A stretch of 51,901 nt of DNA, taken from assembly GCA_049999805.1 (NCBI GenBank), contig JBNGIO010006337.1:1-51901 (forward strand). The letters are read 5' to 3'. A program made the translations under genes and the position numbers. The DNA is from Folioceros fuciformis. Taxonomy: Eukaryota. Below, piece by piece: positions 3,253 to 41,527 of this stretch. Numbering within the stretch: position 1 is the stretch's first letter; the number at the start of each line of letters is the position of its first letter. The notes beneath the pieces were generated by a model. The model saw only the letters and a list, made by a program, of their open reading frames with translations. It was not told the DNA's origin and did no database searches.

Positions 3253-3703
3253 CATTCCGCTTGTACCGTACGTTTGATGTGTTTTGTCTTTCTGAACAAA
3301 GCTTAGACATGCGCAACAAAATGCCGTGGAGGGGCGACACTGCCTTGAAACAAGTGTGTGCTCTTAACTTATGTACAGAACATGGCCAGACTGCAACTAC
3401 CGTCGTCTCTGTCGAGCTCGGTGATGCAGACACCAAATAAGTCGACGACTAACCTGTGATCATGCACACAACTTCCCAAGGGCCATTTTCACGGGCTGCA
3501 CGTACATCTTGACCACACCGTGATACAGTCCACAGGGAACCAAAGAAACCCCAGTTTCTCTTCTCTGGCATTCCATTGTCATGCCACGAAAACCCATCAA
3601 CACCGACATTGAACCCGTCAGCGGGATCAACTTACAGTGAATCACACAGGTAATGGCCATCACCTAGGAACACTCCCTTGCAACGCACGAGAGGATGATA
3701 GGA

Positions 3704-12927: not shown

Positions 12928-13706
12928 CTGCAAAGAACTTGGACAAGAAGGTAAATTTTGTTGTCCCGTAACGTAAAGTGCTGATAAAAGAAAATTAAAG
13001 GAAGCTTTTCTCTCTAATGATATGTGATAAGTTACTCATAAAGAAATGCAACTTCTTGTGTTGAAATTTTAATTGTTGGATAAATAAATAATCAGTGCCT
13101 TTTTTGCTTTTATGAATCATTGTTGACGATATGGCATATGTTGAAATATGTAGTTTATGTAGTTCTAGTTAGAATCTGCATGACTAGCACACCATTTATA
13201 AAAGGTTATTAAGTAAAAAATAATAATTATTTAGACAAAGTAATTTAAATTCTTCAACCTAAATTGAATAAAATTTTAATTCAAGAAGGGAGAATTCATA
13301 CTCTATCCAATACATAAAACCTTCAAGAACGGAGGAAATTCTTGATGCAAGTTGGTTCATTTCCATTTTTTTTTTCAAATTATCCTGTCAAGATAAATTT
13401 AGCTTAATGTGTAGTATCTAATGACTACTCCATAAATTAGATCTTAGTTCCGAACAAAAAATGTATTGCAATAAAAGATTTTATAAATACTATTAATTAA
13501 CTTATCTTTTACATACCTTGGAAATCTGAAGGATGCCTTACGTTGTATGACTTGGTTATAGTGGTTGCATTTTCAATTCTGGCAGCATCATCCAGTAGTG
13601 TCATGACACTGTAACAATCAAATCAATCACTTTCAAAGCTACAAAATAATGAACTAGATGCACTTCTGCACCTATGATTCCTTTCTTTCTTTGTAGGAAA
13701 GTGTCC

Positions 13707-17850: not shown

Positions 17851-20800
17851 CTAGGTGACCGCCAGTTTGGTTGGTAAGAAGAAGGCTAGCCCAGACAGTA
17901 GCCAAAGTGGTTTTTCTTCCGGCTTGCATGGAACTTGTATTTGTGCTATGGCCTTTGATCGTTCGACTGTCTCATACAGGGGTATGTTCATGAATGAACC
18001 TAATGGATGAGGTGTGTCTTTTTCCAACCATGAAAATCTGCAAGATGGGACGCAAGATATTTGCTGTGACTTCTCGGAACATCTGGATAGTCTGGATCCG
18101 TTGAACAGAGCTCCTTCTATGGACAAGTCAACTGAGATTGAGCAGATGCTTTCCTCAATGTCGTGTGCACCGTCCCATGTGGTGACAAGCACCAGGCTAT
18201 CAATGGTTGTCCTGGACATTCTAGCAGCTCGATGTTGAAGGGAGCTGAGATATCTGTGTGGGTGGAAAACGTTTGACAAACGTAATAGATTAATTTGCAG
18301 TTGTTGAGCAGCAGCCATGTGAAAGTAGGTGTTGACTGCATCGCTTCTTTGTAGTGCACCTCTGAGATACTGGACTGGATCGTCAGGACCTTCCCACAAG
18401 TCCTTCCAGGTTTGAAGAATATGGCCTGCAACTAGAGTCTGACAGTCGGCCAGTTTCTGAGTATCAGGAGACAATGTCGAGTTGAGTATGTCACAGATCC
18501 CTGAGAGTGATTGCTTAATTGTAAGCAACATTGTTTTGGAGAACTCCAGTTCTAATTGCAGGAACCTCATAACAGGAAACGAAGCATCTGCTGGGAGGGT
18601 CCTTATCGGGGTCCTCACAGATTCTTCCAGCTCTTTTACTGCTTTAGCTATGGAGGAATCAGATAGTTGAAATAGAACAGACAGATGTATAAAGAGCTGC
18701 TCCCTGTCCAGCTGACCAGATGTTAAGCGTAATGCCGTCAGTGCCTTCAACTTAGTGAGTACGGTTCTTCCGTTGCATTGCTGCAATGATGTGTCAATAT
18801 TTGCTGGCAGCCCCAGAAAAGCCGGTGCATTTACGTCTGGTAGTCTCCTCAGAAGCTCCAGGTATTCAGCTAAGCTGGAAGACCTTGGGAGGACAAGTCG
18901 AGTGTCCCCATACTTGATCCCTTCACCCAAATCACATTTTTGAACGATTGGAGGCTTTGGGTTAGCTGTTCCTGCTGTTATGACGGCATCCGACAAATAG
19001 CATTTGACATAAGTCTCCAAAATTGCAGCATCAACTGGATTGTCAATGTGGCCTCCATATATACCACATGCAAGCAGTCCATGGATGTGAGCCCATGGAG
19101 GGTCCTCCCTCTTCTTTGTGATAGCGAGCAGGATGCCAGCTGCTGATCGCAAGTCAGCAAGGCTAAATTCGTAGTGGGTTGTCCACCCCGTAGGAACGTA
19201 TGCTACTCGCTCCTGGACTGCAGCGTGAAGAAGAGCAAGTGCAAAGACCATTTGTCCTTCAAGTGGTCTTAGTTGGGAGAAAAATTCCTGCGTCCATCCA
19301 CCATATATTCCTCGGAGCTTGTTTGTAATTCCTGGCGGAGTCTCACTTGTAATCTTTAAGCTGGCTTCTGCCAGACTGCCTGGGAAATCCTTGTGGGGTT
19401 CGGATGTCATCCAAAGGCGAAAGGCAGGGTGTGCACATAGGTTATGCATCTCCCGTTCTAAAGTTGGCAACCATGCTGTGACCAGGTGCACATTTTTGAG
19501 AAAAAGCCAATGTCCAGCTTCTGCGGAGTTATGTAGCATCCTCAGAGCTTCTGTAGTTTGACCCTGCCCCATGCCTAGTTGATGATAGTTGGATCTTCCT
19601 ACCTGTCGGAGAGCAAATTCTTCAACCTCCAGCGAGGGGTCGGCTCCAGGTGCTGTGATGAATAGGATTGGTTGGTTTGCTCTGGTCCCAGAAGCTAGGA
19701 TTTCTGGGAGGGAAACTGGTGCTGCATGAAAGGATGATAGCCCAAGGGTATGACAGACGTATCGTTTCATTGCCTCCTCCAGCCTATCGGGCCTGAGCGC
19801 CTGAATCATCAAAAGCCTTTGAAATGAAGTTGTATGACTAGCAACGATATCTGGGAACTTAGTTTCACAAACTGGGGACTCAATCCATTCTGTCCAGATT
19901 TGGGAATTGTGAATATCCATGGATTGGACTAGTGTGGGATGTGCGGCATGCATGAGCTTAAATGTTTGTTTCTGGGCTGCTGGTATCCAAGAAGGAAGTG
20001 AAGACTGCTCATGCAATGGTTGATCATTGCCAGGAATGAACTTAGTTGATGTGAGAAGCCGCAGAAAGAGGTCGCGCTCTAGTTTTGAGACTTGATCTAG
20101 CGTTGTAAAACTTTGGGCCAGGTGCATAGCAAAAGTGAGACGATCACTTTTGTACAGTGACCTTGATGTATGGGTGTATATCAACCCCAGAAGCCTCTTG
20201 GATAAGTACGAGATGCGTTGTGCAATTTGTTGTGAGCTTTCCTCTCCCTGTTGTTTTCCGCTGACAGTCTGAGGATCAAATGCCCTCTTAAACAATTGTA
20301 CAAACGCCGGGAGTCCAAAGCAGTACATGGGGTTGAGACTAGCCAGGCCCCTCAAAACGAAATATAGGGAGCTTCCCATGTCTGCAAGGACTTCATATTT
20401 GTTGCTTTGTGTGGTCAGGGACAATTGCAGAGCGGTAAGCTCTTCAAGGGACTTTTCGATGGAGCTGCTCTTGAGCTTTGTTTCATTTAGTGAGTTGATA
20501 AGAATTTTATTTTCCAAGAGGTCACCCTTCGATGTAGCAAGCTGCTCAAGTAGTAGTTTCTCAAGTTTTCTGAGTTGTAGATGCAACTTTTCTTCTGACT
20601 GCAATTACAAGAGTGGTAGTTAGTTCTTAGATGTTTCACGCGTAACGAGAGAGAGAGCAGCAAACATTTTGGCTCACCGGGCCGTGCTAAGATTCGTTGG
20701 CAGTTCCAGTTTGCTTACCTGTAATAGTGAAGCCTTCTGCTTTTCAAGCTGGGGTTGTTCGTGAACCAGTATGGTTGTCAACAGCTGTCTGCGTAGGCTG

Positions 20801-23800
20801 GACTTTGTGACGTTGAAATTGACAGTCATGAGCATCGACATTGTATCTGGCGTTGTCCGCGGTGCAGACTCTCGAGTAAAGAGATATAGCTGGAAGTCTT
20901 CGTTGTAGTCCACCAAATTGCCACCAAGTTGCAGAGTGCACTTGGAACCATGGCGACTTAAGTCATTCCTTACCAAGGGATACAGCATGGGCTCAACCTG
21001 TTCTACATCTTGGACTAGCAGCTTTTTTCCAAACCGTACCGCCAACTCCAGCGACTTGGTGAAATTCGGATCTTTGTATGCCACTACTTCATACAATGTC
21101 TGTTCTCTTTTGAAACACTGAATCAGCCAGGCTGCTACTTTAGATGATGGGTCGATGATATACTGACATAGCTTGGAATGGCGAACAACGATAGCATTTT
21201 CCAATGACAAATCATCAGCTGGGAGACCGTCATTTTTCCAAACAACCATTTGGTCTGTTGACATGAAAGCCTTTATGTCGAATGGTTTGGTTACAGAGGT
21301 TGGGCTTCCATGATCAGTGCACCGAACTAGCTTCTGCCACACTAATTGCATGGCTTCACGGTAGTCTTCCGATCTAGCAGGCAGATATGTAATAAATGCT
21401 GCGGCCATGATAGCTGAGGCAGCTAGCTCCCTTATATCATTTTCCAGTTGCTGAGCCTGCCCGCGGCGTACTTGTTATTTTTGGTTTACTTGCAATGTTT
21501 TTCAGTTCTGCAATTTCCGTAGGTTGTGAGGCTCACCTGATGTTTCCACCGCGCCTCTTCTCCTCCCAGCTTTTGCAGCAGTTCTTCTGCAGAAATTACT
21601 TTGTCACGAGCGTTGTTTAAGCTAATTTTAAGTGCCTCTGCTTCCCCTGTTCTCTTGCTGAACTCTTGCTTCAAAGTTGCGACTGTTTCGTCCACTTTAG
21701 TCATGTCATCCTCACACTGTTGTATACGCTGTTTTGCTGCTTCTATGGGCTTACTGAGTCCGAGAATTTGTTCCTGGAGAGGGCGGATCCCTTCAAGTAC
21801 CAGCGCGTATTGAACGTTTGCCTTGACCCAAGCTGCCACCCAGACGGGCAATGCAGAGTATTACGTTTTGCATTTTGGAGAAAGTCTGTATGACTACACA
21901 CTTCCTTTGGGCGTCTTGGAACTTGTTAGCGGATGTCAGACAGGCTAAGGTTTATCAGTTGTGTCAGATCCTTACCTGCTAGGGGAGCAGCAGCGACACT
22001 GACGTGGTATATGGTGTTGTGCTCAAATGAGCTTGCTCTTGCTTGAAGGAGCTTTTGGACATCATTGCAGAGCTGCCTGTTGACTTTGGTCGCATCAAAA
22101 TTCATAATTTCTTCCTTCACGGTGCGCATCCCAAGAAACTTTTTCATGTTTAACCAAGACGTGTCGTAGTTCCCCATCAGCCGTAGAACCCCTTCTAGCA
22201 CGTCACGTATGGCATCAGGTGGTATCTTTAGAGACCGTATCTCACTGCAGGCAACTGCCTTGTCAGTTACGAGAGACAGACGACCAGTGTACATACAGTC
22301 AAGTTGTGGACGTACTTTAGATGATCAGTTCTAATTTGGCCCACTGCCTTCTTTGCCGCCTCAACTTGTGGCTGCACACTCTGTAACTCATCCTCAACTC
22401 CTCGCCTTCGTGATTGCAGTGCTTTTTCCTCTTCATTCAGGCTGACTTTCAGTTTCTCTATCTCGGCTTTTCTGGAAGTGACACACTGCATTGTGCTAGC
22501 AATTCTCTGGAGAGAATCTTCTGCTTGTGCCTGTTTTTCAGTTACAAGTGACTCTTGCATAGCAGCTTCTTTGGATAGGACTTCCACTTTCTTTGCAGCA
22601 TCTGCCAGCTTTGTGAGACCAGCCTGCAGAATTTGAAGAATTTTCGGTTTGAATTTGAAGAAGTTTCGGTTTGCAATTTCTCCCGAGCCTGGGATTATGA
22701 TGTACGCACCCGTAAATGGTTCATATTCTCTTTCAGCTTGTCCTTTTTCTGCCGAGTAATCAGCTTGAACTCTTCAACAAATATGACATATTGTCTTGGG
22801 GTAACAGACAACCCGCTAGCAATAACACTTCTATGAACGGCCACCATGACTGCTGCAATTGCAGGAACCATGTCCTTATCGATGGTCGATGTGTTATCAA
22901 GTAGCCTGGCCTTAGTGAAATACGCCATGCCATGATCTGACCACTCTTCTAGCCATAGAAATGTACAATGGGTAAATATTGCTCGGTACTTCCCGCGTCT
23001 TGACTCATAGCTGGGGTTGATTGGGTTCATGCTTAAAATGACATGAAGGTTCTTGCGGACCTGATTGAGATAAGCTCTCGCTGTCAATTCAGAACTTTCA
23101 TGCCTGTCAGTAGCCTATTTTCACAGCCACCTGGTTTTTCGGAGGTTCTTACCCGAGAGACGAAGAATGAGAACAACGAAGAGTAGGCAAAGCCTTCCTT
23201 TGCCATGACCTCTTGCAAAGGAGCCAATGCTACCTGGCCGCAAGTCATTAGATTCTAGTTTGAGAAAAGACAAATTGATTCTTTGCGATGTCCCGGAATA
23301 TCAAACGAAATATCAAGTTTGGACAAGTTTAGCACACACCTGAAGTTCTTCTGCGGAGTAGTACTCAGAAAAGTCATTGCCACTGAGCAGACTGTTAGCA
23401 ACTTCAAGAGTGGAAGGGTCAAACAGCTGATGGTCTTCCAGAAACAATATTATCTACAAGACAGATCTGGCTGGGTCAGATCTGAGGAATACATCAGTTA
23501 ACAATGTTCCTTTGATTCCTGACTGTCGTAACGCTAGGATTGTTGCATTGAGCTTAAGCATGTGTTTTGGTGAGAACTCACATTTTTTCCTTCAACGCCT
23601 GCTACCTGAAGTATGCTCTTGATGTCAGATAGAAATGCCTTCTTTCCATAGCTGTCAAATGAGAGGAATTCAAAGTGAGTTGCATTGTGGTATTTCATCG
23701 TCTATCTCGTTTGTATGAAGTGAAATGGCTGCTACCCGCGTGAGACTGCGGGAGTAAATATTGTCATTTGGTGCATGTATGAAACTAAGGTTGTGCACGT

Positions 23801-26800
23801 GCGTCTCCCAACTCCAGTTTTTCCAACCAGTAACATGGAACCACCGGGCCTTGATAAAATGCGGTGCATCTTAGCGATCCTATGCACTATCTGGAGTGAC
23901 ATACTGACATCCACCCATTATCTCCCTGCATACAAGTAAATTGTAATGAAGGTTCTGCAATGTGGCGGATGTACCTCTGGAAACAGAACAATATTCAGGG
24001 GCCTGTTTTCCCGTTCATAGCAGTTCAAGGCATTTGCCACTAGTCCATGAAAGTCATCGATGCTCATCATGCTGAGGACTTTGCTGTCATTAAGCTTACT
24101 GGCTTTAAAGTGGGCCTTGGACATGACCCATGTCGTAAACACCTTGTTAGGTTGCGGTAGGCTCATCTGAATGGACAGATAAAGTCAGGGAGGGATGGGC
24201 TAAACGTAAGTTGCGATGATTAAACGTTCTTTTTTCAACCTGTGTCTTGAAGTTCTTCGTCATGATTTTGTCAAAACGAGTCTTCTCTTCTGGAAGTGTC
24301 ATTTGATCTCTAATTATGCAAATAGCCTGCACGTAGTTGTGGCCCAACCCGTTTGTTAACTGCCGAAGTGCATACAATCACGTGAAATGCGGTTCGGTTA
24401 GTGTCACCTCGTATGCAAGCGCATCTTGAATGAAAACATGTCTCAGGTCATAGAATTGAAGACCCTGCGAGAGATGCAGGAGGAGATCTCAATTATCATC
24501 ACTTCGTGTAAATTTATGTTCCATTTCTGATGGTCTTGAGAGTTGACTATGGTAGTCTATGGCAGCAGATGACTTATTTTTACTGTACCGGGGCTCATAA
24601 CGCAGCTCACCAGAATCCAGTCTGATAGAATTCGCGGAGAAAATCCGTAGTGGCGGTTGTTTTGTGCGGACTCTACATTCTCCAGCTCGTGGTACACATC
24701 CAGGAGTTTTCCTGGGTTGATATTCGTGGTATCCATTAATATTCTGCCCCAGTAATAGCAAGGCACTCGGCAGCCTTATACTGTTTGAGCTTCCTAATTC
24801 ACTTTCAGTGAAAGATCCATACCTGCTAACTCCGTAGTGTTGTTGTTGACTGTCCAGGTAGAGTCCTGCGGCATTGCCAGAAGCAGGACCTTGTGTAGCA
24901 TCTTGGTGTAAATTACCTGTAAGTTTCATGTAGAGAGAATCGGTTTGCAAGGAGGGAATATGTTTGCAACGTATACTTTGTGAATGTTGGATCACTGAAT
25001 GTTGCAAGTTGGTAAGTTGTATTACTGAAAGTTGTTCTTGTGAAGAGTATGGCATAGATGCAACTCGGACAATGCTTGTGAACCCTTTTGCCAAAGGATA
25101 GCTGCCCTGGTCAGCTGCGGAATGCATGGTTGCAACAATCTGCAACACAACAGCTAATAGTTCATCGCCCAAATGGTTTATGAACTTTTGGAGTGATTGT
25201 TTGTTATTTTGTATGCCTTGAAGGTCTGATAGTAGTGAACTAAACTTTGAGAGAAAGGTGGTATTGAACGTAATTGATCTTAGCACCTGAATGTTCTCCA
25301 CATGAACAAATTCCAAGTCATTGTTGTAGAAGCCCTGATAGCATACAAGCTGCCTCAAAAATGAAATCAGCTGGCTGGTCTCATATCTGTGAGGTGCAGG
25401 ACAGAATACATTCGTAGACGTTATATGACTAGATACTGCTTTGTCGCAGAGTGTGTGACTGGGGTCTAACGGGCTGGATTGAGATACCTGTCTGGTTCAG
25501 GAAAGTTAACATTCCGAAGATATACTATCAGGTCTCTGCTGGTCTTGGGAGTGAGTAGTTTAGAGCCGTCTTTGCCAACACATGTCGTGCCCAGTTGGTA
25601 GAGCCTATCCACAACTTCCTGTACTCCTGTCTTTGCACTGACAGTGCGCAAGTTCAGGTTAATATGAGTTTGTGTTTCGGGTGACGCAGGTCTCAGCATC
25701 TTTGCATGTATATCAGAGGTATGAGGTAGATTTGCACCTGCAAAATATTGTTGTTACGGCTGTGGATGTTAATCTCTGAAAGCAGTATTGCAATAGGGTG
25801 TTTTTGCCGCATTTTTCGGGACCCACCTGGAAGTTAGTTTGTTCAGATATATGTTTTACCCCGATAGCTCTGCCTGCCATGACCTTAGTATCATCTGCTT
25901 CACATCGCTTACCAAAAGCACTGGCTGGGATGTTCCAACCCAGGGCCAGACCATGGCTGCTGTTTGAGACATGTTTTCGACATCAACGATGTCTGTCGTA
26001 CAGTCTTTTTGAGGGGCGTATCGTGATAGGCAAGGGAGGTCGTTCAAGGAGGGTTTCTGGACAGGAAGTCCTGACAACTTCTCTATCTCTGAAAACAGCT
26101 GCGCTCTGATCTCTGTTCTCATGCTGGCTCCTAAGCCGTAAGCAAGTCCTTGAACGAAACCTTGTAGACAATGCACTTCATTTATGTGGGAAAGGGCGTC
26201 CTGTAGAATGCCCATCTGCAAATCAAGGTCTTCCGTAGTTATTGATAAACGTATAAAGAAGGATTCCCCGCAAGCATCAGATATCAGATCCAGAGGTGCA
26301 TCCAGCTGAGACCTGTACAGACCTTAGTTCTTGCAATGATAGTTGGATGTGTGCATGCCCAGTGAAAGGCTTTCTTGAAGATTTCTTGAAACCACGTCCT
26401 TGCTTGCGTCACCATTTCCTTTCCCTGGTTGCAAATTTATTCACAGCCCGAATGACGTGACTTAGAGCCCAAGTCAAAAGGTACTATATCTTAGTCAGTC
26501 GTAAATCTTGAATTCAAAAGTAACTGATATAGCAGTAAGGACAGTGAGACTGACCTGAGACGAGAGCCACTTGTCACCAATTCCATCCAGACTGATATCA
26601 TCCTCAGAGAAAACAATCATCTCCATTCTGCTCACTGTTGCTGGTGACGCAAATGTAAGGTTTTCACATTCAAAGAGGAAGTTCACTTTGGAGTTGAGTT
26701 GAATTCGTTCGCCACTGATCACATCAGATGTATGGAGTGACAAGTTTTTACTCATTTTATGGTTTATGAAGTTTTTTGGTTGCTCATCTCAGAAACAATT

Positions 26801-29800
26801 AGAGGACTTCTGTGCACGGTACCTTGGCAGAGTAAGAATATGATTGTCATCGAGGACAGAGTTGAGTGATTCAATCCATTCTGGGTCAACATCCCCATCA
26901 CAGACAATCCAAGATTGCTGTTCTTGGGGTTCTTTTGCCACCTGGTTGCACGGAGCAAGCAGTCATATGTAACCAGTCATGTTTAAGCCAAACAGTCTAC
27001 CCTCCTTGTTCATGTATTTCATGGGCTTGTTGAAAGTTGCCACCTTTCGGGCTAGAGCAGAGAGCACTCCATCATGCCACTCACGAGTGTCCAGATCCAT
27101 GTGTCCAAGGAGATCTTGTCGTAATAGTGCCTGCCCAGATTTTCCTGTATGCTCAATCACTACAATTCTATGTTGTTGACGTTTTAACATAAAGGACAGG
27201 TTTTTTTTTGGCATTCCAACAAGTCTTGGTGATCTAGATTTCTCACCTTAGGGCTGAGGACGTGCACTTTGATAGGTTTTTGCTTATTCAAAGTTGTGAG
27301 CGTATGCTGTAGAATCCTCCAAACTGTTGTCTTTCCACTTCCTGACGGACCTACAAGGCTAATGCCAATCCGCTGTTTGCACGCTACATGCAGCTGTATA
27401 ACCTTCTGCACTTGCGACTCCATAATCTGGTCACAGAATTGTGAGTTCTTTCACCGCTACCGTTCTCTACAAGTGCCAGAGCATCCCTCCATGTTCTCGT
27501 GAAAATTGAAGCTTTTCACTACCTCTAGATTCTGCTCATGAATTGTTTGTCTGATAGCGGCAAGGAATTTCATCGGAGTTTCTTCGGTGTTGTCCACTCC
27601 TGGGAAAATATCTGAGACTAGCTGCTTAAAAGTTTCAATGTCTGCATGGACTAACTTTGGCACAGTGCTTGCCAGAAGGCAGTGGACAACTATATGCTGT
27701 TCTTCTTGTCTAGTCAGCTTGGTGACATTTTCCGTATTTTCATGAAGAAAGTTGCCAGCCATGTTGAGTACAGACTTTATTGCACGAAGACCCCAGTCGT
27801 AGTGATGTTGCTTGGTCAGTAACTGCACGGCCAATGTGCAGTATGTAGAGTTGTCATATCTGCTTCTAGATCGCCCAGGACTATGCAGATCAGGTGTGTA
27901 CCTCACTGGCGAATGTGAAAACAGCAACAACCTTTCGACCAAGTTCTTTTGCAGACATGAAACCCTCTGACATCAAATTAACCTGTAAAAGGTTGTCAGC
28001 GGGTTCTTCTGTGAGACATTTTTCCAAAGCGAAATTTCTGTCCTAAGGTTTAATTGCTTCATACCTCGGCGATCAAGTCCGAGTTGGGGTAGGTCATTGT
28101 TACAGAACGGAATAGAGCTTGAAGGTTGCTTGGTAACTTCGAGCGACCAGCATAGTCTTTAGACTTGGGATTAAGTGTAACAAAGATAGCAGAGTTGCGA
28201 TTTAGCTTCGTTATCTTCCCAAAGAAGCTGATCTCGGGTATGTTATCTCGAATGGCTGATTGAATTGCTTGAATCTGGAGGGAAAGAGCAGACAAAACAT
28301 CTTCTTCGAGCCTGTTGAATTCATCAAAGCAGCCCCAAGCTCCTGATTTGATAATTCCTGAGAGTATGCGACCCATGCTTTTGAAGTCAAATTCACCGTC
28401 ACAATTGAAAACCAGGACCTGTTCCAGTAAATTTAAAGCAAATGAGGGATGTCAGCCGATTCTATTAGACCTGCCGCAGTAATGTTCCCATTCCATGTGG
28501 CTTGTAATATTGTCCTATGCTGTGAAGGTTTTGATAAGGGGGGAAGTAATAACCTCTCTGCCAAGATAGTAACCAAGTGCTTTCACAGTCTCTGTTTTTC
28601 CCGTGCCTGCTGGTCCAAAGATATTCCCACCGTATCCTAGATGAAGCCCTTGAGTAAGCACAAGAAAACACTTATCTGAAAGCGGAGTGTAGACGAGTCT
28701 AGGGCCATTGCCATGATACTCAAAAGAGTAAACAAAGTCTGCTTCTGCCATCTTCACGGAAGCTCCAAGATTGGTTGATTTGTAGAATCGGAGCTGCAAA
28801 TTGTAGTGGGTTATTTATTGCAAAGGCTGTAGGCCTCCCTTATGTCTGTATTGCTCGTCCAGTATTTGAGAATGTACCTGCCGTGACCATATCCATTCTT
28901 CAGGACTGCAAGCATTGGCTGTCAACAGGTCTTGCACGATTTCAAGTGCATGGATCAGATCCAGGATGAGTGGTTTGAACTTCTGATTTTGTCGTGCTAT
29001 CCCTGATTTTGTAAGACTTTGCAGTTCTGATGCAAGCTCTGTTCGCAAAGAGCTTAACGCATTACTTTGAATGGCTTGTTCACACTTTCTTGTGAACTCT
29101 ACTTGGGCTGCTAAGCAAAGCATTTGGCACGGCAAATGTTTCTGGTCCATCTTCTGTAAGCAATCTGCGAGATTCTGTCGCAGTGTTGACTGTAGGGTAT
29201 AGATCAGGTGTCAGTCTCTGCCATAGAACCTGAGATGGTCGGACCTAAAAGGGCTCTGCCTGTGCTAAAGCAAGCAGAGACTCTCAGCTTGAAAAAGTAA
29301 ATTAGCAGCATCGCGGGGTGTGATATGTATTGTGTGCCAGCCTGTCAGGTTAGAAGTCACCTGCAACGTAGCAGCAAGGACATTCAGCCAGTGTTCTATC
29401 TCCCCGCTGATCTCAACTTGGGCTCCAAGATTCAATACCTCACCCTCAGGACTCTGCACTGATACAATTCTGCACAGCACGTCCACTGGGATTGAGCCAG
29501 TTTGTTTTCCTTTTGATGTTTCAAGGAATCTGCCCTGGGAAGTTCAGCTCACAGCCCACCTTCTTGATTGGGGTGAAAACTTGACACTCTGTATCCCTGG
29601 GAATATCTTGGTCAGGTGCGCCTGGACACATCATCGGCATAGCTATGAGCACAATTATCGCAGATTGCTGTGATTTCTCAAGTTGTCATAACTGGCTATC
29701 TGCTGCAAACCTGTAGTACTTCAGGTGTTTCTGATTGCCCCAAGATTTCCAAGAGGTCGTCATCTCCTACAAAGTAGAACCGTGGAAAACTCGTCCGCTT

Positions 29801-32800
29801 CTCCTGCAACCCACCCGTTCAATATCTGATACTGTATTTGACAATGACACGTGGCATGCCAGTCGAGTCCGGGATAAGCGTTGACCTCGAGGAACAATGA
29901 GAGTGCACGTTGACATATATCCAGTTGTTGGTCAAGGTGTGGAAGGACTTCTTCCAGTTGAGGGTAGTCCAACAGTTTCATGACTGTTGAGTTGGTGGAT
30001 ACTGACTGCAAGATGGTTCTCAGCTCAGCGTCCACCTTGTTGAACCGCATCTGAAAAGGCATGTGGTTCACTGTTATTTGAAGTGTAGGAGGCTGACAGA
30101 CGAGCATAAGATCTCAAGTCAGATATATTTGTGTCAGATATATTTGTCATAACTGACTTCGTCAAAGAACTGCTTAAGCTACCTGTTCCATCGGGAGGGC
30201 TCCTTTTGCAAAGATTGGCTCCAAGTAGACCCATTTTCTCTGTATGCTGGCAGGCCCGCAAGATTAGCAACAGTACAATCCTTGTGTGCGGTTGATGGAT
30301 AATAATAGCCAGTCGTACCGGCAATGTGACCAGATTTTTCCTTTCAGAAGCCTCGCACAAACCTGTTTAGACGATGGAGGGACTGCTGGAGTCTTGATAA
30401 CCGGTGCTCCCAAAGGCGTAGGTCATCCCTCAATACTGTAGCGAAAGGTGATTCTTTGGACGCCTTCAGCAGTAGTTGGTTGTCTCCTATCTGTGTACAA
30501 GAGCTTATAAGCGCGCGAGATGTAAGCAACTACTCGATTTGTCTTCGGACAAAGTTTCTCCTTTTCATAGCTTTTGGAGTGCAGGACTTGTGGGAGATTA
30601 GTCACTGACTTCTGTCAGAAGTTGTGCCCAGTCCTTTATTAGGATGGTTGATTGGCTGTTTTTCTTGCTTGGACTGTAAGAAATTGTGGAAAAGCATCTC
30701 TCCAGACTCCAAGTAATCAGCTGGTTTATGGATTCCCTAATGCTCACCTGTTAGGACATTTAGAAGCAAAAAAAGTAGTTAGTATTCAAGAACTGCCAAG
30801 AGAGTGGGTGTCATGTCTCTCAACCTCTCCAGTAGCTTGTGCATTTAAAACTTCAAGTGCTCCTGCTTCTTCAATTATTTTGCCAGCCCGGGCCATAAAG
30901 TCGCCCATTTGAAGATGTGCCACTTGCAGACCCTGGAGAATGAAGGGCAAAAATGCATTGTGGAGAATTTACTCAGCCATGGCTCTTCTACTGTGTTGTT
31001 TGAAGCTTATCTTTCAATGGCTGTAGTCATGTTTTGGAAACTTTCACTACCTGATCGTTTAAGTCAAGCAACGAAAGCAGTTGGACCCAGTGGTGGTATT
31101 CCCAGGACTCTCCTTTAATAAACGATAACAGAGGAATGCATGCGTTGTAGTCTTCAAGTTCTCTAGATAGTGCTAAGTGCGTTTCATCGTTGTGGACACT
31201 CGATTTCAAAATCTGTTGCCATTTCACTACAAAGTCTTCTAGGATGTATATCTTGTCTCTTGCTGTAGTCCATTTGCAAGTTGCTAGTTCGTCCCTTTCC
31301 TCCACAAATCTCCCCACTTGTGTCCACCGCTGCCAGGTACGAGCAGTAGAAAATTAATCCTTGCAAGTGTTGCCCTTTAGTGTGGGCTCTTGGTGATAAC
31401 TTGCAAATGTGGACTCTGCGGCAAGCGTTTCTATCCCAATTTTCATGACAGCTGAAAGTGTTTGTGGCATGCCTCCTGAGTGAGCTCAAAGTCTTGTTTG
31501 ATACTGTCAAGCAGTGGGAATGAAGGCTCCCCCATTTGCAAAATCTTGCACCTCTTTGAGGCCTTCTCTGTCCGCCCCTGTGTTGTTCGTTTTCAAGTCA
31601 AACTTGCAGGTGGAACACCACCGAGGCCAGATTGTTCAGAACGAGTCGCTTGCTTACCTCCAGCTCCTTCAGCAGATGTTCACTCTCTGCCAGTTCCTGG
31701 AGAATGCTCTTGATGTTTTGAGGGCACTTTGCCTTAGCATGTTGCTGGTGCCTGCCAAGCAAATCAGGGGTGTGTTGTAGACGTGTAAACTCACTGCGAC
31801 TGCGTATGATGGGTAGGCCTTCAAGTACCAAATATCTGCGAAGAACAATATCCGGTTCTGCACTTCTTGAACTTCCTGGTGCATCTTGTTTCGAAGTTTG
31901 TGTGCTTGCTGATGTAGATTTGCCTGTGCACGAACTGGCTATGTTATCAGAGCAGATAGGGGAACGACGAGTCGTATAGACGGATGTACCTCATGCTGAT
32001 TCAGCTTCGCCATGAATGATTCCCAACTGCTGCCAAAGGATGCGGCATACATGTCCGTGTTACCGTGTCCAATTCCTGCAAAACTTCTGAAATGCCGAAG
32101 TAACTTCAGTCTCTCCTCGGTGTCTTGCCGTACCTTCACGATGTGTGGAAGGTTTGCAATCTGCAAATCCCCACATCATAGACTGTCAAAGCTTTGTCCA
32201 ACGATAAGATGGAGCTTAAGACCATCGATAGGGATGAGCACGTTGGAGGGTATCCAAGCATACCAGTTGCAGAGCTCCCTGACGTGTGTGTTCTATGTCC
32301 TCAACTGAAGATAGGCTGCCCTCAATGATGTCTTGTCCGTCTGCCATAAAGCTCTCAATGGCAGCGATGTCTTTGTCAACTTGGCCTCTTAGTGACTCAC
32401 AAAGCACATTGTGCAGGTCCTTGACCTGGCCATGTATGGATTCTTTCGCTGGTGTCCCCAGTACCCTAAAGCACCCAACCTGGTCATGTATCAAACAAGA
32501 TTGTCTCAAACACTGGTGCGAGGCAACCAAAGGCGAAGCCCTCCTTCTGAGGCCCAGTGAGGGAGATGATGCTGACCTTGAATTCTAGGGGCACGGCTTC
32601 ACATTTCCTGCAGAGAGTCCGGATCTTTTTGAATTCATCGTCCCAGTCCCTGCTTTGGTCCGTCAAGGTCCCAGCCAATTTCAGCAAGGCTAGATTTTCC
32701 TGCAAACAATAGCAGCGTCGGGGAGGTTAGCTGGGTTTCCCAGCTGAGTAAGGTGACCGACATGTAGGGATCTGTAGGTACCAAATCTAACTGTTCTGTC

Positions 32801-35800
32801 AGTTTAGTGCGCTCGGTTTGCAGTCTTGTGAACAATTCTCTCGCTCTGTCAGATCCAACAGTACTTAGCTGCAAGGCTTTGAGGAGCGGAAAGTGAGCGG
32901 GCGTTACGAAAACAGGTACCTATCGTCGATAAGTTTTACTCGGGGATGGGCTTGCAAAGTGTGGCTAAACTTATTGAATGTTTCTGTGCTGACACCAAAG
33001 CCTCGGAAGCTCACTGGCAAGCTGTGATTGTGGCAACAATCCTTTAGTAGTGTGAAGATGTTGTTCTTTTAGACGTAAATGGTATAGCTGTGTGGATGAA
33101 CGTTCCACTGTGATGAACATGGAATGGGGACGTGTAGAACCTGAGGCGGTCCTTTATCATTTGTTGGTGATGTGCAGTGATGTCATCCATGTCAGGGCTG
33201 TAGGCAAGTGATCCGTCCTTGAACACTAGTTTCACGTTCACCTTATTTGTAGTAAAGCATGCAGGCATACTTCTTAATTCTATAATAGGAGATGAGTACC
33301 AAAACAAGTGGAAGGTCAGCCGTTGTCCAGACTTAGATGGAGTACCTCAGGCAAACTTCTTTCGAAGTGTTCGAGGAACTTATCATATTGACGCTCCAGC
33401 ATTTGGAATATCTGGCAAAAAACAGCCAGTAAATAGGATGTCGAAGAGTTTGCATTTCACCTGGGTGTCAAGCTTGAAGATTCAACGTCCTTGGTTCTCA
33501 CTGGCTTCGTAAATTGACATTAGACGCGAGGCGCCCATGTCAGCTCACCTCTATATCCCAATGTTTTTGCCACTCGCTAAGTTGAGAGTAGCCTTGTTTT
33601 TCTGCTTCTTCAAAAATACGACTCATTTCTTGCAAAGACGTTCGCCACTGTTGGGACTGATGCTGAATGTCAAGTGCTGCCAGTTTCTTGGCAATTTGCG
33701 CAAGTTTGCTGTACGCGCAGTTTTAGCACATCAGATTTTCGTAGGGAGCAGCCTTGAACCCTGAAAGATCGTCCACAGCGTCAGTTCAGGGGCAACCTGT
33801 GCTGCAGCCTTAACAGCCTGTTCCTTTCGGATAGTTTGAGTGTTGCATTCTGAAGCCTTTCTGTATAACTCTGAGTGGAGAAGAGAAGGAGTTATTGAAG
33901 AGTCGGCCAAAGCAATAATGTATGACAAGTTCGTCGGCTCCATGAGAATGTGGGTGTTGGTGAGGCGTTTGTTATCTCAATTACCTGTACGGCTGTAAGA
34001 TTGCTCCACAGGAGTGGCTGGCCTAAGGAGTCACAGGGATTCTTCAGAATTGCCTCAAACCTCAAGGCATCTTTCAGGAGCATGACCTTCTGACAGGGGA
34101 TCATTTGTGTCGAAACATCGTTGTAGAAATTGGCCACTTGCTTCAAGAGCATTGCTTGCTTCTGGAACTTTTGGGCTCTCTCTACCACTTTCACTATCTC
34201 ACCCTGTAAGGATGCACGGCACATGACATTTTCTTCGTATCCTGTGGTTAGCAGGCACCCGCGGAAGAGGAAATGTTTTTCAGTTCCTTGAGAGCTTGCC
34301 TAGTTTAACTCATGGCTTGGTACTTACATCCAAGACAAATCCTGATGTGATTAGCTCGCGAGTTTGGCGAATAAGTGAAACGAGATCAGTGCAAAATGTC
34401 ACCTGTGTCCAGTCAGCAACGGTTAGTGACCTGCTGACTGAACTGCGCCGTCGGGCATATGTGGTGGTAATACCTCTACATGGCCGTCTTCAGGATTCAG
34501 TTTCAGAAGCTTTCCCGATGTCTCGAGAGATACATTTTTCAGTCTCGTTTTCACGTCTGCTTCCCATGTCTGGAACACTCTTTCGTTATAGACCCCTAAG
34601 GACTTGAGTCAGGAATGCCCAAGCCAGAATGCCTTGACCAGACTTACCTTAAGCTGATTTTTCTTGTAAGCCGCGATGTCTTGGTTCAAGTCACTGCACA
34701 CAGGCCAAGCCAGTATGCTAGTGTTGGATGACCAGGGTGCTACTATTTGTAAGTTAGGTTCGGGTTCTATCCCTCGAGTCTCACCTGAGCTCCTGAAGAA
34801 GGGTGTCGAAGGGCTCAGTCATAGAGGAAAGAAATGGCCTTAATGCTATTATAGTAGTCCTTGTTTCATGCACCTTAATGGCAAGAAGGCAAAGTACAGT
34901 TAATCCAGTTACATTGTAGAATGATAATAGCGAGTTCTTGGGCATATTTGTTAAGATTGCTATACCTTGTGCTCCTGCTGGAGTGACCAGAAAATGCTGC
35001 CAACAACAAGGGTAGAATTGCAATGAGGGAGGGATGATGGTCCTGGAGTCCCTTTTTTCCCTTCGTTTCGGCAGTGCCTATTGTAGTTACCTCTTAGTCC
35101 TTCCAAATGCCTGCATGCCGAGGCGCTCTAAAGCTTAGAAATGCATTGTGCTGCTGTTCCGTACAAGGCTGTTGCAAATTTGCCTGGAGGACCTGTTGAA
35201 GAGTGACAGCAGCAGCTCTGTTTTGCTGCTCAAAGCCTGGACCACAAGCGGCCTTTCAAGGAAGTTTTTGTACTTCCGGATCTCGGCCATGACCTGTTAT
35301 TGTTGTGGACATGTCAACGATGGATAAGGATCCTCGAGTGAAGACACTTTCTGTTTCATGTTACCTGGTGGGGACCAGCCGTTGCTGCTGTGGCGGTCTC
35401 AGTGATTTTGGGTTCCAATGAGGCAGCGAATGATGGTAAGATGGAGGAGCAGAAAATTTCGCTCAACTTCATTGCTATCTTGCCTTCAAGAGGGTTCATT
35501 TGCTTTTCATACACCAAAAGAGCCGCCTATTTCCACAGGCAAAGTCTCCACTTTAAAAAATATCTGAACTTGACTTTGAACTGTATGTCCTGACTGTACC
35601 ACATTCGTTTTGGCATTCAAGAGGCATAACAAGCGGGCGTACCTTCCAAGCATTTTCTCCGGAAGGGGTGCAATCCAGGGCACCTAGGTTGGTGAAAGCT
35701 CGACACCTACTCAACTTTACCAGTGAATCATTCTCAGACTCCGAGACCAGCGTCAGGAGCCGCTGAGAAACCTGTTAGTTAGCAAGCCAGTTAAAATTGA

Positions 35801-36623
35801 TGTCGACTCTCTGACCATCTCGTTTGTGGCCTCAGATAGCAAGGACAATGAGAAAGATCGCGCCACACGGAAGAAATGCATCTCTTGCGTGATATACCTC
35901 GAGCAGCTTGAGAATCTGGTCAAGACGATTGTGAAGAGTGTTGAGCAACTCATCCCTAAAATGCTGTCCGAGCCAGGGTCTGGTTACATGCGAGGGCCAT
36001 GTGTATCCAGTCAAGTGTACTGTCATGTGATCCCACGTCTCTATCAACCGCATCGCCTGACTTAAAGCGAGCTCCACCTACGGCAACATGACTGACTGTT
36101 AAGGAGTATTGTACAGCCTGTATTTCCCTTTGCGATTAACCACGGCGCATCAGCACCTGCTGGAATCGTCCAGTCCATATATCCACTTCAGATATCTTGT
36201 GGAGCACGGCCGCATGAAAGGACCTTCCCACAAGTCTCATGAGATGCTCGGTTCTCTTCTGGCTAAACGCTGCGGGAAACTCCCCCGTGCTCTTGAGGTT
36301 TCCATCATTAGAAGGGACGATCCACAGCTTCTCCAGAGCATCTTGCGTGCTGTCTACCAAGTCCAGTAGCTCCTCATCACTCTTGGACTCGATATTCTGC
36401 AAGAAACACAAGTAGTCCGTGACTCAACCAGCGGGTCAGACGCTCCACTTCCGGACGCGCAGTCGGTACATCCACTGACCACAAAATTGTCCCTAACAGG
36501 CCGCAGCTCCCGCACAACACTGAAAGCCTGGTCCCGAACAGCCGCCGAGGTTGCCGTCCTAGCCAGGTTCTCCCACGCCTGAAACTCGTCAGCAACGCTG
36601 TCCGTCGCCTTCAGATTCTCCAT
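17851..36623 (-). CDS. DYNC2H1: Cytoplasmic dynein-2 (retrograde IFT) heavy chain, DHC1b/DYNC2H1; dozens of exons; start codon tentative
   Basis: AAA1 GPAGTGKT and [13 protein letters not shown]2 [11 protein letters not shown]3 [11 protein letters not shown]4 GKTGVGRRT (Arg in place of the P-loop Lys, as in dynein-2); [15 protein letters not shown]; microtubule-binding domain [25 protein letters not shown]...SVAAAPLA; C-terminus [10 protein letters not shown]. Confidence 0.93.
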
Positions 36624-37220
36624 TCCTCTCTTGCAGCCAGCCGATCAGCAGTCGCAGAGTCCTAAACCAGTCCAGGCCGTGACAAGTTGCAAGAGAAGGC
36701 GGGTTCTACTCGGCGACGCCTTGCCTCCGTTCGCCGCTCCAGCAGACCCACCTCCGTTTCCAGCTCGCATCAGCCAATCTGACTCGCACATTTGCGACAC
36801 CCAGCTCCAAAATCATGCCGTGAGGACACAAACACATCAAAAGGTCTTACCCACCAAAGGTTCTACGAAACCGTTTCCATGTCCATGTAACGTGACAGGC
36901 AAACGTCCCGTCCGTACGGACTGTAGGGGGCGTTAAACCAGCGCCTGCTGTGATACGCCTCCGCACTCTTTCCTTTCGTATCCCACGACCGGGACGTTTA
37001 TCAAACGCTTTTCCCGTCCGTCCCATCCGTTTGCCCCGTTCAGGACTCAAACTCAACTTCAAAATCGATTCAGACACTGAATATTCTTACACGCCTTGTG
37101 CTGGAGCTAACCAAAGAGCGTGCAAGGATCCAGTCGTGATTCTTTTCTTCGTCCCCCATCCGCCCACGCCCTTGGGCGGATTTCATTAAAGCAATCAAGT
37201 TATGTGGAACGAATGAAGGC
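36624..37220. promoter_or_regulatory. Putative bidirectional promoter/5'UTRs between dynein-2 HC (-) and tetraspanin-like gene (+)
   Basis: Head-to-head start codons at 36623 and 37221, 597 bp apart; no convincing coding sequence between. Confidence 0.55.
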
Positions 37221-37882
37221 ATGGCATTATTAAGGGAGATCCAATTAGGAAAGAGCTGCCCAGGGGAATCCTTGAGGGTCTTCAATGTACTCATATTTGT
37301 AAGAACACCATCACTAAACATTCATTCACTCTCCACGCTTGTGCCACTCTCTTTTAATTTGAATGATTTGTCTATATTTTATAGATATCAGGGTTTTTAA
37401 CCATCCTGATGGTCATTGTTATCCAAAAAGGATCGCCCAACTTCTCTCCTGGCTTGTAATCTCATGACCTAGTTATGAATTTTCTTCTTTCTTCTGAAAC
37501 ATACATTCATACGTATTGACATACTATTGAACTACTATGCACATATCAGCATGCTCTTAGCTCTTGGAGCAATAATCATAGCAGCAGCAATAACTGGATG
37601 TGGTACCAATGCTTTGACTCTATGCTTTAAAATCAATATGCTCCTTATGGTCATCTCCACAATTGGCACTGTCGGGTTTCTTCTTGCGCTTTTAGCAACT
37701 GTAAGTCTCACTATGTATTGCCTAAAATTCATCTAATGTTTCAAATGAGTTTAAGATGAATGAAACTTTCTTAAATTTATAGTATTCATCATTTATCTCA
37801 CAACCTGCAGAGGAGCAAAGTGGCAAAGAGCTTTAACTCAAAGAGCTACACATTCAAAAGTGTAAAGACTTGAACTTCTCAT

Positions 37883-37914
<32 letters not shown>

Positions 37915-38599
37915 ATAATTTCTGATTTTAACATTAATACTCCATTCAGATAGACGACTTTTGCCGAGGAGCTACACTTGGATACATTATTCTCTTTGTA
38001 TGTGAGGTACAATATACATTGGATCATTTAAATATATAAAATTTTGTAAAATAAAATTTAAAATATTTGCCAACAATTCTAGCAAGTATTTTTGCAGATT
38101 GGAGCAATGATCTGTGCTTGTGTTCTAAAATCTAGAGGTTCAATGCCAAGTGAGGCATATGAGGTATGACGTGTTCTAGCTTTTATATGTGTTTCTAAAT
38201 ATATCAGCATTTTGAGTTCATATATTGATTTATTTATTTATTTAATTTTCTTAGACCATGGAACAAACACGGAGTCGCCGTGAAGTAGCTATGGGCCAAC
38301 TGCGACATGATTTGTACTATTCTTCTCAAACTACCCACCAAAGTTTTTATAAATATGTGATTATGTACTGATAATGTAATTTTTTTTTTTCTGGGATGTG
38401 TGATTTTAGGAACGTGAAAGATGTAAGCGTAGACAAGAAGATGGCTAAAGCTGTTGCTAGCAAAATGAAAGAAAAATATGGAGAGTAAGGATTTCTTTAA
38501 CAACTCTTCTTTTCATGCTTTTTTAATACTTCAAAATGGCTAGAGTTCTTTCTTCCTTCCTTTTTCAGGTGGACACATGAACTTCATGGATCGTATTGA
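37221..38599 (+). CDS. Four-TM tetraspanin/TOM2A-like membrane protein, 9 small exons, 212 aa
   Basis: GT-AG exons 37221-37298, 37385-37455, 37550-37700, 37811-37861, 37950-38006, 38098-38163, 38255-38313, 38410-38484, 38569-38599 are phase-compatible (639 nt, no internal stop). TM1 LRVFNVLIFISGFLTILMVIVI, TM2 LLALGAIIIAAAITGC, TM3 MLLMVISTIGTVGFLLALL, TM4 LGYIILFVCEIGAMICACVL; tail SKMKEKYGEW. Confidence 0.82.
37883..37906. repeat. (TA)12 microsatellite in intron 4 of the tetraspanin-like gene
   Basis: Direct reading. Confidence 0.95.
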
Positions 38600-39162
38600 T
38601 ATTTTGTCAACCGGATGGATTTATGGATTCTTGGATGCTGAAAACCAAGAACAACACTCGCACATATTCATAGGCATATCTTTTGTTTCTCAATATGCAC
38701 ACAAAGGTATACATACTTCCACGCTAACTTCGTACGCTCGAGGTTCCCCGTGTCAAACGCGGGTTTAGAGACTTTGAATTCTTCACGCTGGTCTGTGATG
38801 TTCTTTGTCTTGATGCTGGCCTGTGATTGGGTGTTCAGATTGCGGATGCGCGAAGCGGACAAAAGTTTTCTGAAACGGCCCTTTGGACTACCGAAAGTTG
38901 TCCAAGCTTTAAAGTTGCCAGCCAAAACGTTGTGGCCGAAGCTTTGGGAAAATGGCAACTAGGCCAGGGTCAACAACAAAAACAACAACCACAACAACAT
39001 GTGAAGGGATCTGATAAGCGCTCCACGTGCATATGCGGCAAGCTGGCCCGTCTGTGAAGGACGGCAGGCAGTTGAGACAGTATCCTGCTACCAACCACGA
39101 TCCTGGAGTTTGAAAACTATGTGGCAAAAGAGGAGACTAGGGACGAAATAGAAATGATGTGA

Positions 39163-40372
39163 TCAACCGGTGGGCATGGTGTCCTGCATGATGGGAGCGA
39201 GTATCCGGAAAGCTTGTTCATACACTGGCCTCTTGAACCCAACAGCCTGCAGCATTCCATTCCAACGGGACACAGTTCTTCACCTTCAGCATGGTTGAAA
39301 CAGCATCGGTCACTTGCTCAACTCCACATGAGATGACAAAGTTTGCACACCTTCTCAATAACTTGATCCACTGGCAGCCATTTCCAATCCGAGAACTCAG
39401 CTGCCTCATTTCCATCCCCGACCAGATTGATCTCGCTGTCATCCCCACGAAATCTGAACAAATACCTGCCATTCACTCTGGATTTTGTTACACAACCATA
39501 AGACCCGTGCAATGACACTACACAGCTTTCGAAGGTGCACTCGATAAATGGACAGGTCCAGCTTTCACTGATCACCATTTCTGCGCCTGGCCAGTCCAGT
39601 CTTGCCCCCAGAGCTCCTCCAATCTCGCTCTGACTTCGCTTGGGAAGTCGTATGTGAGCCACTGCGGCACCTGTTCACACATCCAACATCGAACCTCACA
39701 GCCCTCTGTTTATGCATGCATGACCATGCTGTGAAAGGAAATAAAGTCCTCTTCACACCTCCCCGATTATGTCAGCCGATGTCACCCCGGTCTCTTCTCT
39801 CAGCTCCCTGATGGCAGCCTGACGAGGTTCTTCCCCCTCGTCTATGCCACCCTGCGGAAGGCACTCATAGCATTGACAAACACAGCAAGGATGCCGTGGA
39901 TAAGCTGCAGTCCCAACAAGGGGTCGGAGTACCTGAGGCATCTGCCACGAGTCTGGAACATCCAAACGCAATGCCACAAACACCTGCCAGGCCAAGCTCA
40001 CGGTTGTCAGCCTCCAAACATGCGATTTGCGCAAGTAAAATGTTCACCCGGAGCCTCCCGCACCTCGTTCTTCTGGTTGACGAGACAGATCCCTACGTTC
40101 GGTCTGTAGCCCACAGGAGGGCTCTCCATGCTAGCCACCGTGCCTAAACTCCTCACAATACTTCCGCTCCTGCCATATAGAGATAACCCTCCTTGCCTTT
40201 TCTGCCACAACGCAGGTCTTATCGTGCGGTGTCGAGGGGGTGTTATGCAAGGGTACCGCGGAAAGACCCAGATTCTTCGAAACACCCAAGCTTTGACAGC
40301 GGGAAGGGACTTAGGCAGCAGAACAGGGAGGAGCTTGGGCAAAAGGGGCTCCCCTCTCGCAGAAAGCATCAT
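39163..40372 (-). CDS. Nudix hydrolase, Ap4A/(p)ppGpp type (NUDX26/27, RppH-like) with transit-peptide-like extension, 6 exons
   Basis: [37 protein letters not shown] (Nudix box), [28 protein letters not shown]; stop TGA at 39165-39163. Confidence 0.93.
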
Positions 40373-40805
40373 GCTTGTCTCCTGCTCCGTGCTGTGGGGC
40401 CTTGCTTTTTGGGTCGTGTCGATCTCGTGGGCGTACACAGATATGATGTGCTTGGATGCTAAGAGGGAAAAGGGGACTGAAATAGCTCATCGACCGTTAC
40501 ATGTCTTGACGGGAGCCTCAGCCAATACAGCTAGTGTGCTCCCCTCGAACAAGTACATCCTAAGAGACATGAGATACCTCGTAAGAACAGTGAGTTGTTT
40601 CAAACCTGCTGGCGAGTCGAGAGCTAAAGGGCCAGCCCCAGGGGAATTAGACTACTAGGAAACATCCGACACACAACAACATTCCTCGACATAATGCATG
40701 GGGAGGAGTAGCCGTCTGACTTCACGTCTTGAACTTCTCTCTGCCATTTTGCAGACTCGTTCATCCAGCTAGTGCAAGGGTCCTGAGGCGCAACCCCGCC
40801 TTTGC

Positions 40806-41527
40806 TCATTTCTTGCCACTCTTCTTCAATCCTGCACCGCCGAAGGTGCCCTTTCCTGATGCTTTAGCTTTCAAGTCCTTCAAGGCCTGACAAAAGAAAA
40901 ATAATCTCACTTACATGCTCTACTACAAAGGGCCAGCTACAACCTTCAAGCAGCACACACATCATACCTTCTCTTCGTCCTTCTTCTTTTGAAGATGTGC
41001 TAGATCAGTCTGGAAGATGGAGAGCAAATCCTTTTAAACTTATTCACAACACCCAACTCCTTCCAACCTTGCGCAACAGAAACGCCAACACCATGAGATG
41101 GTATTACCTCATCGTAGTCTTTCTTCTCAGGCTTGGCAGCCTTCAAGGGCTTGAGCTTTCCACCTACATCAATACAGTCTCCCTTCATCAACTCAGGCCA
41201 GGTGACCGGGTAAACCCTAAGAGCGCAGGGCCGTGCAGCGAATGATGCATCCCACTACCGCCCTAGGTGACAACTGCAGTTCGTCCCACAGCATCCCATC
41301 GTAAAGAAATGAATTCCAACAAAACAAACAAGAGACATTCAACTTCCACCCAGACTAGAAACCCGTCATTCCTTACGTGCGCGAACGGGCTCCAGACACA
41401 CCCCATTCTCGTGGTAAAGAACCACAGCTTCCTGAAATAGGATGGAAGGTCTAACAGCAGGGGACCGAAGTGGGAACAGGTTCTAGTACTACGCGCTACT
41501 GCATCACATACCCTGCCGTCCAGACAT
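40806..41527 (-). CDS. TMA7: Translation machinery-associated protein 7, 4 exons, 64 aa
   Basis: Exons 41527-41512, 41163-41108, 41009-40968, 40886-40806 give MSGRQGGKLKPLKAAKPEKKDYDETDLAHLQKKKDEEKALKDLKAKASGKGTFGGAGLKKSGKK*. Confidence 0.95.
41212..41220 (+). promoter_or_regulatory. Telo-box AAACCCTAA in TMA7 intron 1
   Basis: Exact motif; telo-boxes are known to be enriched near the 5' ends of plant translation-machinery genes. Function here is inferred. Confidence 0.4.

Follow-up and report, generated by a model that had tools for sequence, protein, structure and literature searches.

A cytoplasmic dynein-2 heavy chain gene from the hornwort Folioceros fuciformis that probably lacks the N-terminal homodimerisation domain

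Introduction

In human DYNC2H1 an N-terminal homodimerisation domain (NDD) precedes eight helical bundles, as described in the accessible part of PMC10987677, and the dynein-1 counterpart of this domain is covered by the accessible part of PMC5473941. Models of dynein-2 assign to the NDD the formation of the homodimer, and on this homodimer depend the asymmetry of the motor, its auto-inhibition and its loading onto IFT trains. Among land plants, the dynein-2 heavy chain (DHC16) is reported in the available text of PMC9237703 only from Marchantia (Mapoly0108s0011) and Anthoceros angustus (AANG014060), in both cases with all six AAA domains; the same text describes mosses, lycophytes, ferns and Ginkgo as having swimming sperm whose flagella are built without dynein-2. 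Some dynein genes of Basidiomycota and diplomonads are split, according to the available portion of PMC5100056, which also names the N-terminus as the part of dyneins that is most often mispredicted.

Here we describe the dynein-2 heavy chain gene (DHC1b/DYNC2H1/DHC16) of the hornwort F. fuciformis, which lies within a stretch of 51,901 nt that is an entire contig of the genome assembly (JBNGIO010006337.1, referred to below as the window). The encoded protein is colinear with human DYNC2H1 (PDB 6SC2, 6RLA, 8RGG) from approximately residue 163 to the C-terminus, with the P-loops kept, and is approximately 36% identical to vertebrate orthologues; residues ~1–162 of the human protein are, however, absent from the hornwort gene. 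The best scores are obtained with green-algal DHC1b (Mesostigma Mv22388, Cymbomonas, Chlamydomonas/Volvox), but these algal proteins carry the NDD, and the hornwort protein begins at their residues ~170–200. The Marchantia and A. angustus proteins belong to the same class, a likeness drawn from their description in the available text of PMC9237703. Split heavy-chain genes (DHC1 of Ustilago, Agaricomycota and Wallemia; DHC3/4 of Giardia/Spironucleus) also lack an N-terminal part in cis. They differ in having an identified partner gene and in their cited breaks, which fall before or inside the motor domain, whereas for the hornwort gene the searches turned up no partner and the missing part is confined to the NDD.

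By its sequence and its motor the predicted hornwort protein is a dynein-2, but one without the NDD (residues ~1–150) of the canonical homodimer, which DNA-level tests did not find in the same polypeptide. The reading that we favour, with a confidence somewhat better than even, is that of an intact, functional dynein-2 that starts at ATG 36623 and has no NDD anywhere. The features on which the discussion draws are collected in Table 1.

Table 1. Features of the window at and around the 5′ end of the dynein-2 heavy chain gene
Feature	Position	Strand	Basis
Cytoplasmic dynein-2 heavy chain gene without NDD	17851..36623	-	63 exons, ~4165 aa, spliced profile alignment
Exon 1 (first homologous): ATG, last linker residues, start of helical bundle 1 with DEFQAW motif	36480..36623	-	HMM positions 163–209, E 7e-5; profile alignment; boundary from AlphaFold
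Exon 2, helical bundle 1	36157..36396	-	HMM positions 210–280, E 1e-12; profile alignment
Exon 3	35898..36077	-	HMM positions 278–348, E 1e-12; profile alignment
AAG resembling a weak splice acceptor, same frame as exon 1	36630..36632	-	Score -2.4
In-frame TGA, eight codons 5′ of exon 1 ATG	36645..36647	-	Sequence; no differences in contig of RNA run X1
Stretch like the last NDD helix, ELETEVGLLERR	36709..36766	-	7.3 bits ungapped, not significant
Possible leader exon or old first-exon remnant: ATG 37159, MGDEEKNHDWILA, then GTAAGA donor	37091..37159	-	Weak, post hoc
CpG/GC-rich stretch, read as 5′ end and shared promoter	36401..37200	.	32 and 29 CpG per 400 nt
Divergent gene of 8 exons; 203-aa product with four hydrophobic segments	37221..38488	+	Stop-free spliced ORF, 7 GT-AG introns
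Antisense RNA contig over 5′ part of dynein-2 gene	34000..36275	+	Record 1 of X1, 20,039 nt; dynein introns retained

Results and discussion

Identity and overall structure of the gene

The gene was modelled using a spliced profile aligner written for this analysis, with a profile of 4274 positions derived from 25 orthologues and run on 39300–17700. The alignment covers profile positions 168–4271 with no stops and no frameshifts, and contains only two deletions of at least 8 profile positions. The modelled introns are 66–171 nt long, and comprise 61 of the GT-AG type and one GC-AG. Identity to dynein-2 orthologues is 35–41% over query residues ~1–4160 in all 10 tested, among which Mesostigma and Cymbomonas gave the highest scores (41% identity, full length). 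A homologue search with the 917-aa last ORF as query likewise returned dynein-2 heavy chains: among the 120 of 383 matches listed, every named one that states a dynein class is a dynein-2. The P-loops of AAA1–4 and the Walker B motif of AAA1 agree with the seven orthologues aligned, those of AAA3 and AAA4 being of the dynein-2 type, and the reading frame is unbroken through the stalk and the C-terminal domain. The protein has diverged further than its algal orthologues in every 300-residue bin. On this sequence evidence we identify the gene as a cytoplasmic dynein-2 heavy chain, colinear over tail and motor.

The genome assembly searched comprises 87 Mb in 7240 contigs. The conserved tail exon of the dynein-2 gene matches one genomic copy in it, and the region 36000–37400 also has a single match. 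A search of the genome with PF08385 missed the dynein-2 gene and matched only contig C6163, where the minus strand at ~134800–137700 encodes an axonemal dynein heavy chain, probably an inner-arm dynein-f chain, that has DHC_N1 and in which an NDD can be recognised.

No land-plant orthologue occurs among the matches listed in three homologue searches (120 of 383, 14 of 14 and 120 of 501), and none of the six matches of a HMMER library search is identifiable as a land plant. A metagenome scan for dynein-2 orthologues matched 410 stretches, of which none was confirmed.

The start of the protein and the domain boundary

Exon 1 opens with an ATG at 36623–36621, which is 597 nt from the ATG of the divergent gene. 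The preliminary description of this DNA had reported this start, the TGA eight codons 5′ of it and the distance to the neighbour, and all three are borne out at the coordinates given here and in Table 1. A base-calling error at the TGA is unlikely, because a 205-nt X1 contig that spans 36636–36840 agrees with the genome letter for letter (0 differing letters, 0 gaps); its depth is 2.7, and the TGA lies 9–11 nt from its end. The acceptor-like site that had been noted just 5′ of exon 1 is also present, as an AAG ending at 36630, and is weak: its score compares with -2.0 for the weakest of the 62 acceptors modelled in the gene, which consist of 57 CAG, 3 TAG and 2 AAG.

The DEFQ.W motif had been placed roughly 190 residues into the protein, a figure that has to be revised. 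In human DYNC2H1 the motif, as DEFQFW, is at residue 174 (position 380 of the chain, from which a tag of 206 residues is subtracted); it is also at 174 in a mammalian orthologue, and its median position among 99 orthologues is 172 (range 64–216). The methionine of exon 1 corresponds to approximately human residue 163, so that exon 1 does not align with the true N-terminus of the orthologues, in agreement with the earlier expectation. The missing part is ~162 residues (~490 nt) rather than ~190 (~540–570 nt).

The N-terminus of an algal orthologue was modelled with AlphaFold (8-row alignment, mean pLDDT 75.5). The model has an alpha/beta domain at residues 5–151, a low-confidence linker at 155–164 and helices from 170, and the start of exon 1 maps to residue 170. 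The absent part coincides precisely with the NDD plus the linker that follows it.

The CpG counts around the start (Table 1) compare with 11 (median) and 15 (maximum) per 400 nt in 44 bins of the gene body, and comparable peaks are found at other gene starts within the window. The composition thus points to this peak as the mark of the 5′ end of the dynein-2 gene.

Search for the domain on the contig

An NDD HMM of 168 positions, run over the whole window, gave a best match of only E 6.9. A spliced NDD profile scored 12.1 bits in 37300–36624, as against 11.3 ± 1.3 in 200 shuffles, and 19.1 bits over all the contig DNA 5′ of the gene (15 kb), which is the background level (19.0 on the other strand, 19.8 downstream). 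An NDD profile made from 20 green algae likewise gave no NDD signal 5′ of exon 1. Extensions forced to profile positions 145, 138, 120, 90, 40 and 10 never rose above shuffles in any of 12 tests, 13–87 of 100 shuffles being equally good whether stops and frameshifts were treated strictly or made cheap. In the controls, windows of 167 positions from the gene's own tail scored 58.7–256 bits (21 of 21), the NDDs of held-out orthologues 109–188 bits (12 of 12), and the NDD of the paralogous axonemal dynein on C6163 40.1 bits (null 14.0 ± 1.1). No Pfam NDD model matches the N-termini of the orthologues.

The space available was also considered. In the dynein-2 gene 167 profile positions occupy 690–1062 nt (21 of 21 windows) and only 597 nt lie between the two ATGs, and the NDD is therefore not encoded between the two genes. 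When permissive splice sites and introns of 60–250 nt were allowed, 182 stop-free paths connected an ATG further 5′ with exon 1, of which the longest spliced leader adds 94 aa, without NDD likeness. These results uphold the preliminary description, which had argued that the NDD exons could hardly fit, that at most a short extra exon was possible locally, and that the motor may be truncated at its N-terminus; the last of these now has the support of HMM and spliced-profile tests with positive controls, which found no NDD on the contig. We consider it very probable that an NDD is absent in cis.

It is improbable, in our estimate, that a cis-encoded NDD was missed, either because its exons have diverged too far to be recognised, because they lie on the far side of the neighbouring genes (across a very long intron, or inside an N gap), or because a misassembly severed them. 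Such an arrangement could make use of the in-frame AAG acceptor; N-termini are the most divergent part of dyneins (PMC5100056, in the portion available), no independent DNA run spans 36276–38866, and there are N gaps further 5′ on the contig. It has to contend, however, with the lack of space and the 94-aa limit on permissive leaders, with the absence of signal across 15 kb upstream, with a same-strand Nudix gene that lies in between and is transcribed down to 38866, and with a CpG peak that is unbroken across the start, in a region with a single genomic match.

A clear NDD is present in 173 of the 186 dynein-2 orthologues fetched (at least 3900 aa). The other 13 show scattered starts or fusions and are probably gene-model errors. 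Two of these 13, the Logan dynein-2 predictions P0168 (4160 aa) and P0171 (4075 aa), also start just before the DE..W motif; they may have been truncated independently, or gene calling may have gone wrong at an intron. Two further Logan fragments, P0123 and P0125 (35% and 31%), begin 3′ of the NDD region and so are uninformative on the NDD. We found no published report of a dynein-2 without an NDD in the literature searched, which left most subscription journals out of reach.

Candidate leader sequences

A short leader would be a further way to extend the protein. Here a 23-codon first exon starting at ATG 37159 would keep the first NDD helix and be joined to the AAG at 36630, with or without one small exon in between, the core of the NDD having been deleted internally. 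The encoded MGDEEKNHDWILA gives an ATG-anchored match to NDD profile positions 1–13; with the broad profile 13 of 2000 shuffles reach its score, as do 7 of 320 real tiles. Its GTAAGA donor is in phase 0 and in frame with 36630, and there is a likeness to the N-terminus of Mesostigma (EPRHAWLVA). The match is, however, post hoc, and with the green-algal profile 132 of 1000 shuffles score as high; none of the 62 modelled acceptors is as weak as the one required, an intron of 461 nt would be needed where the longest modelled is 171 nt, and ATG 37159 is just 61 nt from the ATG of the opposite gene. We regard this leader as unlikely. From its sequence the stretch may be a first-exon remnant or a short leader, and the domain core would be missing either way.

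Two other stretches were considered and rejected. ELETEVGLLERR, which has a TGA two codons 5′ in its own frame, was discarded as an NDD helix, forced extensions scoring no higher than shuffles even with cheap stops and frameshifts. TRLLLQLVTAWTGLG, which tblastn joined across the TGA to one orthologue, gave forced extensions that were no better than shuffles.

A separate domain elsewhere in the genome

The NDD might instead be a polypeptide of its own encoded elsewhere in the genome, or be joined by trans-splicing, in which case the holoenzyme would be ordinary. There are precedents in Basidiomycota and diplomonads (PMC5100056, available portion), and the break sits in what the AlphaFold model of the orthologue presents as a flexible linker. 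Three NDD-only queries against the hornwort's own genome yielded 0 candidates, and the one other weak match, on contig C6178 (E 6.25), scored at background. These searches are insensitive and their genome-wide negatives weak, because the internal control recovered exon 2 only (E 0.003) and the NDD of the C6163 paralogue was missed by all four genome queries; among 7240 contigs a separate NDD could thus escape notice. Against a split gene stand the empty result itself, the prospect of a free NDD with no covalent tether to the tail, and the position of the cited known breaks, before or within the motor domain. We give this explanation little credence.

RNA over the locus

One RNA run (X1) overlaps the region; two other runs, X2 and X3, gave no cover. 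It represents spliced RNA, as is shown by six CT-AC joints of the Nudix hydrolase gene (38866–41000, minus strand), whose six introns these joints confirm. Spliced dynein mRNA was not found in the X1 contigs, which leave 36276–36635 and 36841–38865 outside their cover and which, as RNA contigs, cannot reveal transcript starts. The 5′ part of the dynein-2 gene is overlapped by an antisense contig (Table 1) with two plus-strand GT-AG joints, at 35434–35621 and 35685–35834, and a longest ATG-ORF of 55 aa in the part viewed. If colinear, this contig begins near 15903 (window 15903–36275), at a polyamine/amino-acid transporter gene. It would then suggest transcriptional read-through across the whole dynein-2 gene, with the reservation that a contig is not proof of one transcript.

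That the gene was recently disabled, a 5′ deletion having removed the first exons and left a young pseudogene or non-functional relic, would suit the antisense-spliced RNA with retained dynein introns as the only RNA over the gene, the divergence of the protein, and the dispensability of dynein-2 in mosses, lycophytes, ferns and Ginkgo, all with swimming sperm (PMC9237703, available text), but is very unlikely in view of ~4165 codons and 62 canonical introns with zero lesions, the conserved motor motifs, and the possibility that X1, whose tissue is not on record, comes from material in which a sperm gene might well be silent.

How dynein-2 might work without the domain

Under the favoured reading of an intact dynein-2 without an NDD, the exons for residues ~1–162, comprising the whole alpha/beta NDD and the flexible linker, would have been lost from the gene, with ATG 36623 now the translation start, where helical bundle 1 begins. 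The protein would presumably be expressed in sperm-forming tissue and still drive retrograde IFT. Given the truncation, the heavy-chain pair may be kept, in a looser form, via intermediate chains bound at bundles 3–4, and be clamped by the Roadblock/LC8/Tctex light-chain tower and by motor–motor stacking in the inhibited state; we lean towards pairing of this kind. In human DYNC2H1, R587 contacts both intermediate chains (PMC10987677, accessible part). In our alignment, where the exon boundaries are modelled, the equivalent of R587 is kept in the hornwort protein; the lysine equivalent to K477 (WDR34) is not, at a position that varies among the algae too. Alternatively, and with something under an even chance given the truncation, monomers may be loaded on IFT trains and work in teams. 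Its plausibility rests on the gliding of microtubules at ~0.5 µm/s by ensembles of monomeric dynein-2 motors and on a putative monomer fraction of dynein-2 observed in Chlamydomonas (both from the accessible part of PMC6103457).

Genome searches with PF03259 (Roadblock) and PF15305 (IFT43), which are low-sensitivity Pfam queries that miss short exons, gave no matches. The search with PF05783 (LIC), which also misses short exons, found only a small-GTPase locus, which we take to be SPG1/Tem1-like. All three negatives carry little weight because A. angustus has an annotated Roadblock (PMC7027989 supplement, in the part available).

Since mosses, lycophytes, ferns and Ginkgo manage without the motor, relaxed demands on hornwort dynein-2 would provide a reasonable setting for the loss of its NDD. 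The loss could be one step in the decay of dynein-2, which was lost altogether in other land plants. We tentatively suggest that hornwort sperm flagella may use dynein-2 without direct heavy-chain pairing, with retrograde IFT running via chain clamps or monomers, and that they may represent a living intermediate to the full loss in mosses and vascular plants. If the favoured reading is true, a natural and intact heavy chain without the NDD would imply that the domain is dispensable, and would be one more stage, at the sub-gene level, in the successive losses of dyneins among land plants, of which only a liverwort and a hornwort have been reported to possess dynein-2.

The divergent neighbour and other flanking features

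The divergent gene is AT-rich (30–39% GC) and stands head-to-head with the dynein-2 gene; its seven introns, all GT-AG, are 86–110 nt long. It had no match in Pfam, Atlas or PF00335 (an exon-1 Pfam result not being counted), and RNA run X1 gives it no cover. The 203-aa product reads as a membrane protein with four helices and may be tetraspanin/TOM2A-like, and one may guess that the gene is a co-regulated sperm gene. GC-box-like motifs occur as a pair (CCGCCCA/TGGGCGG) in the shared promoter region, which also has a short palindrome, GAAACCGTTTC; the positions are 37157–37185 and 36860–36900.

Elsewhere in the window, an AT-rich gene with an N gap at 12402–13013 (minus strand) carries the repeats QRVYRGHLGR and QKVFRGYLSR, which resemble IQ motifs and which we assume to be such; it is possibly another flagellar gene. 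Elsewhere in the genome, an LCIB-family gene (PF18599), a marker that fits the hornwort origin of the DNA, is found at 3950–4891 on the plus strand of contig C1919. Among land plants, LCIB is reported in hornworts only, according to the accessible part of PMC8075897.
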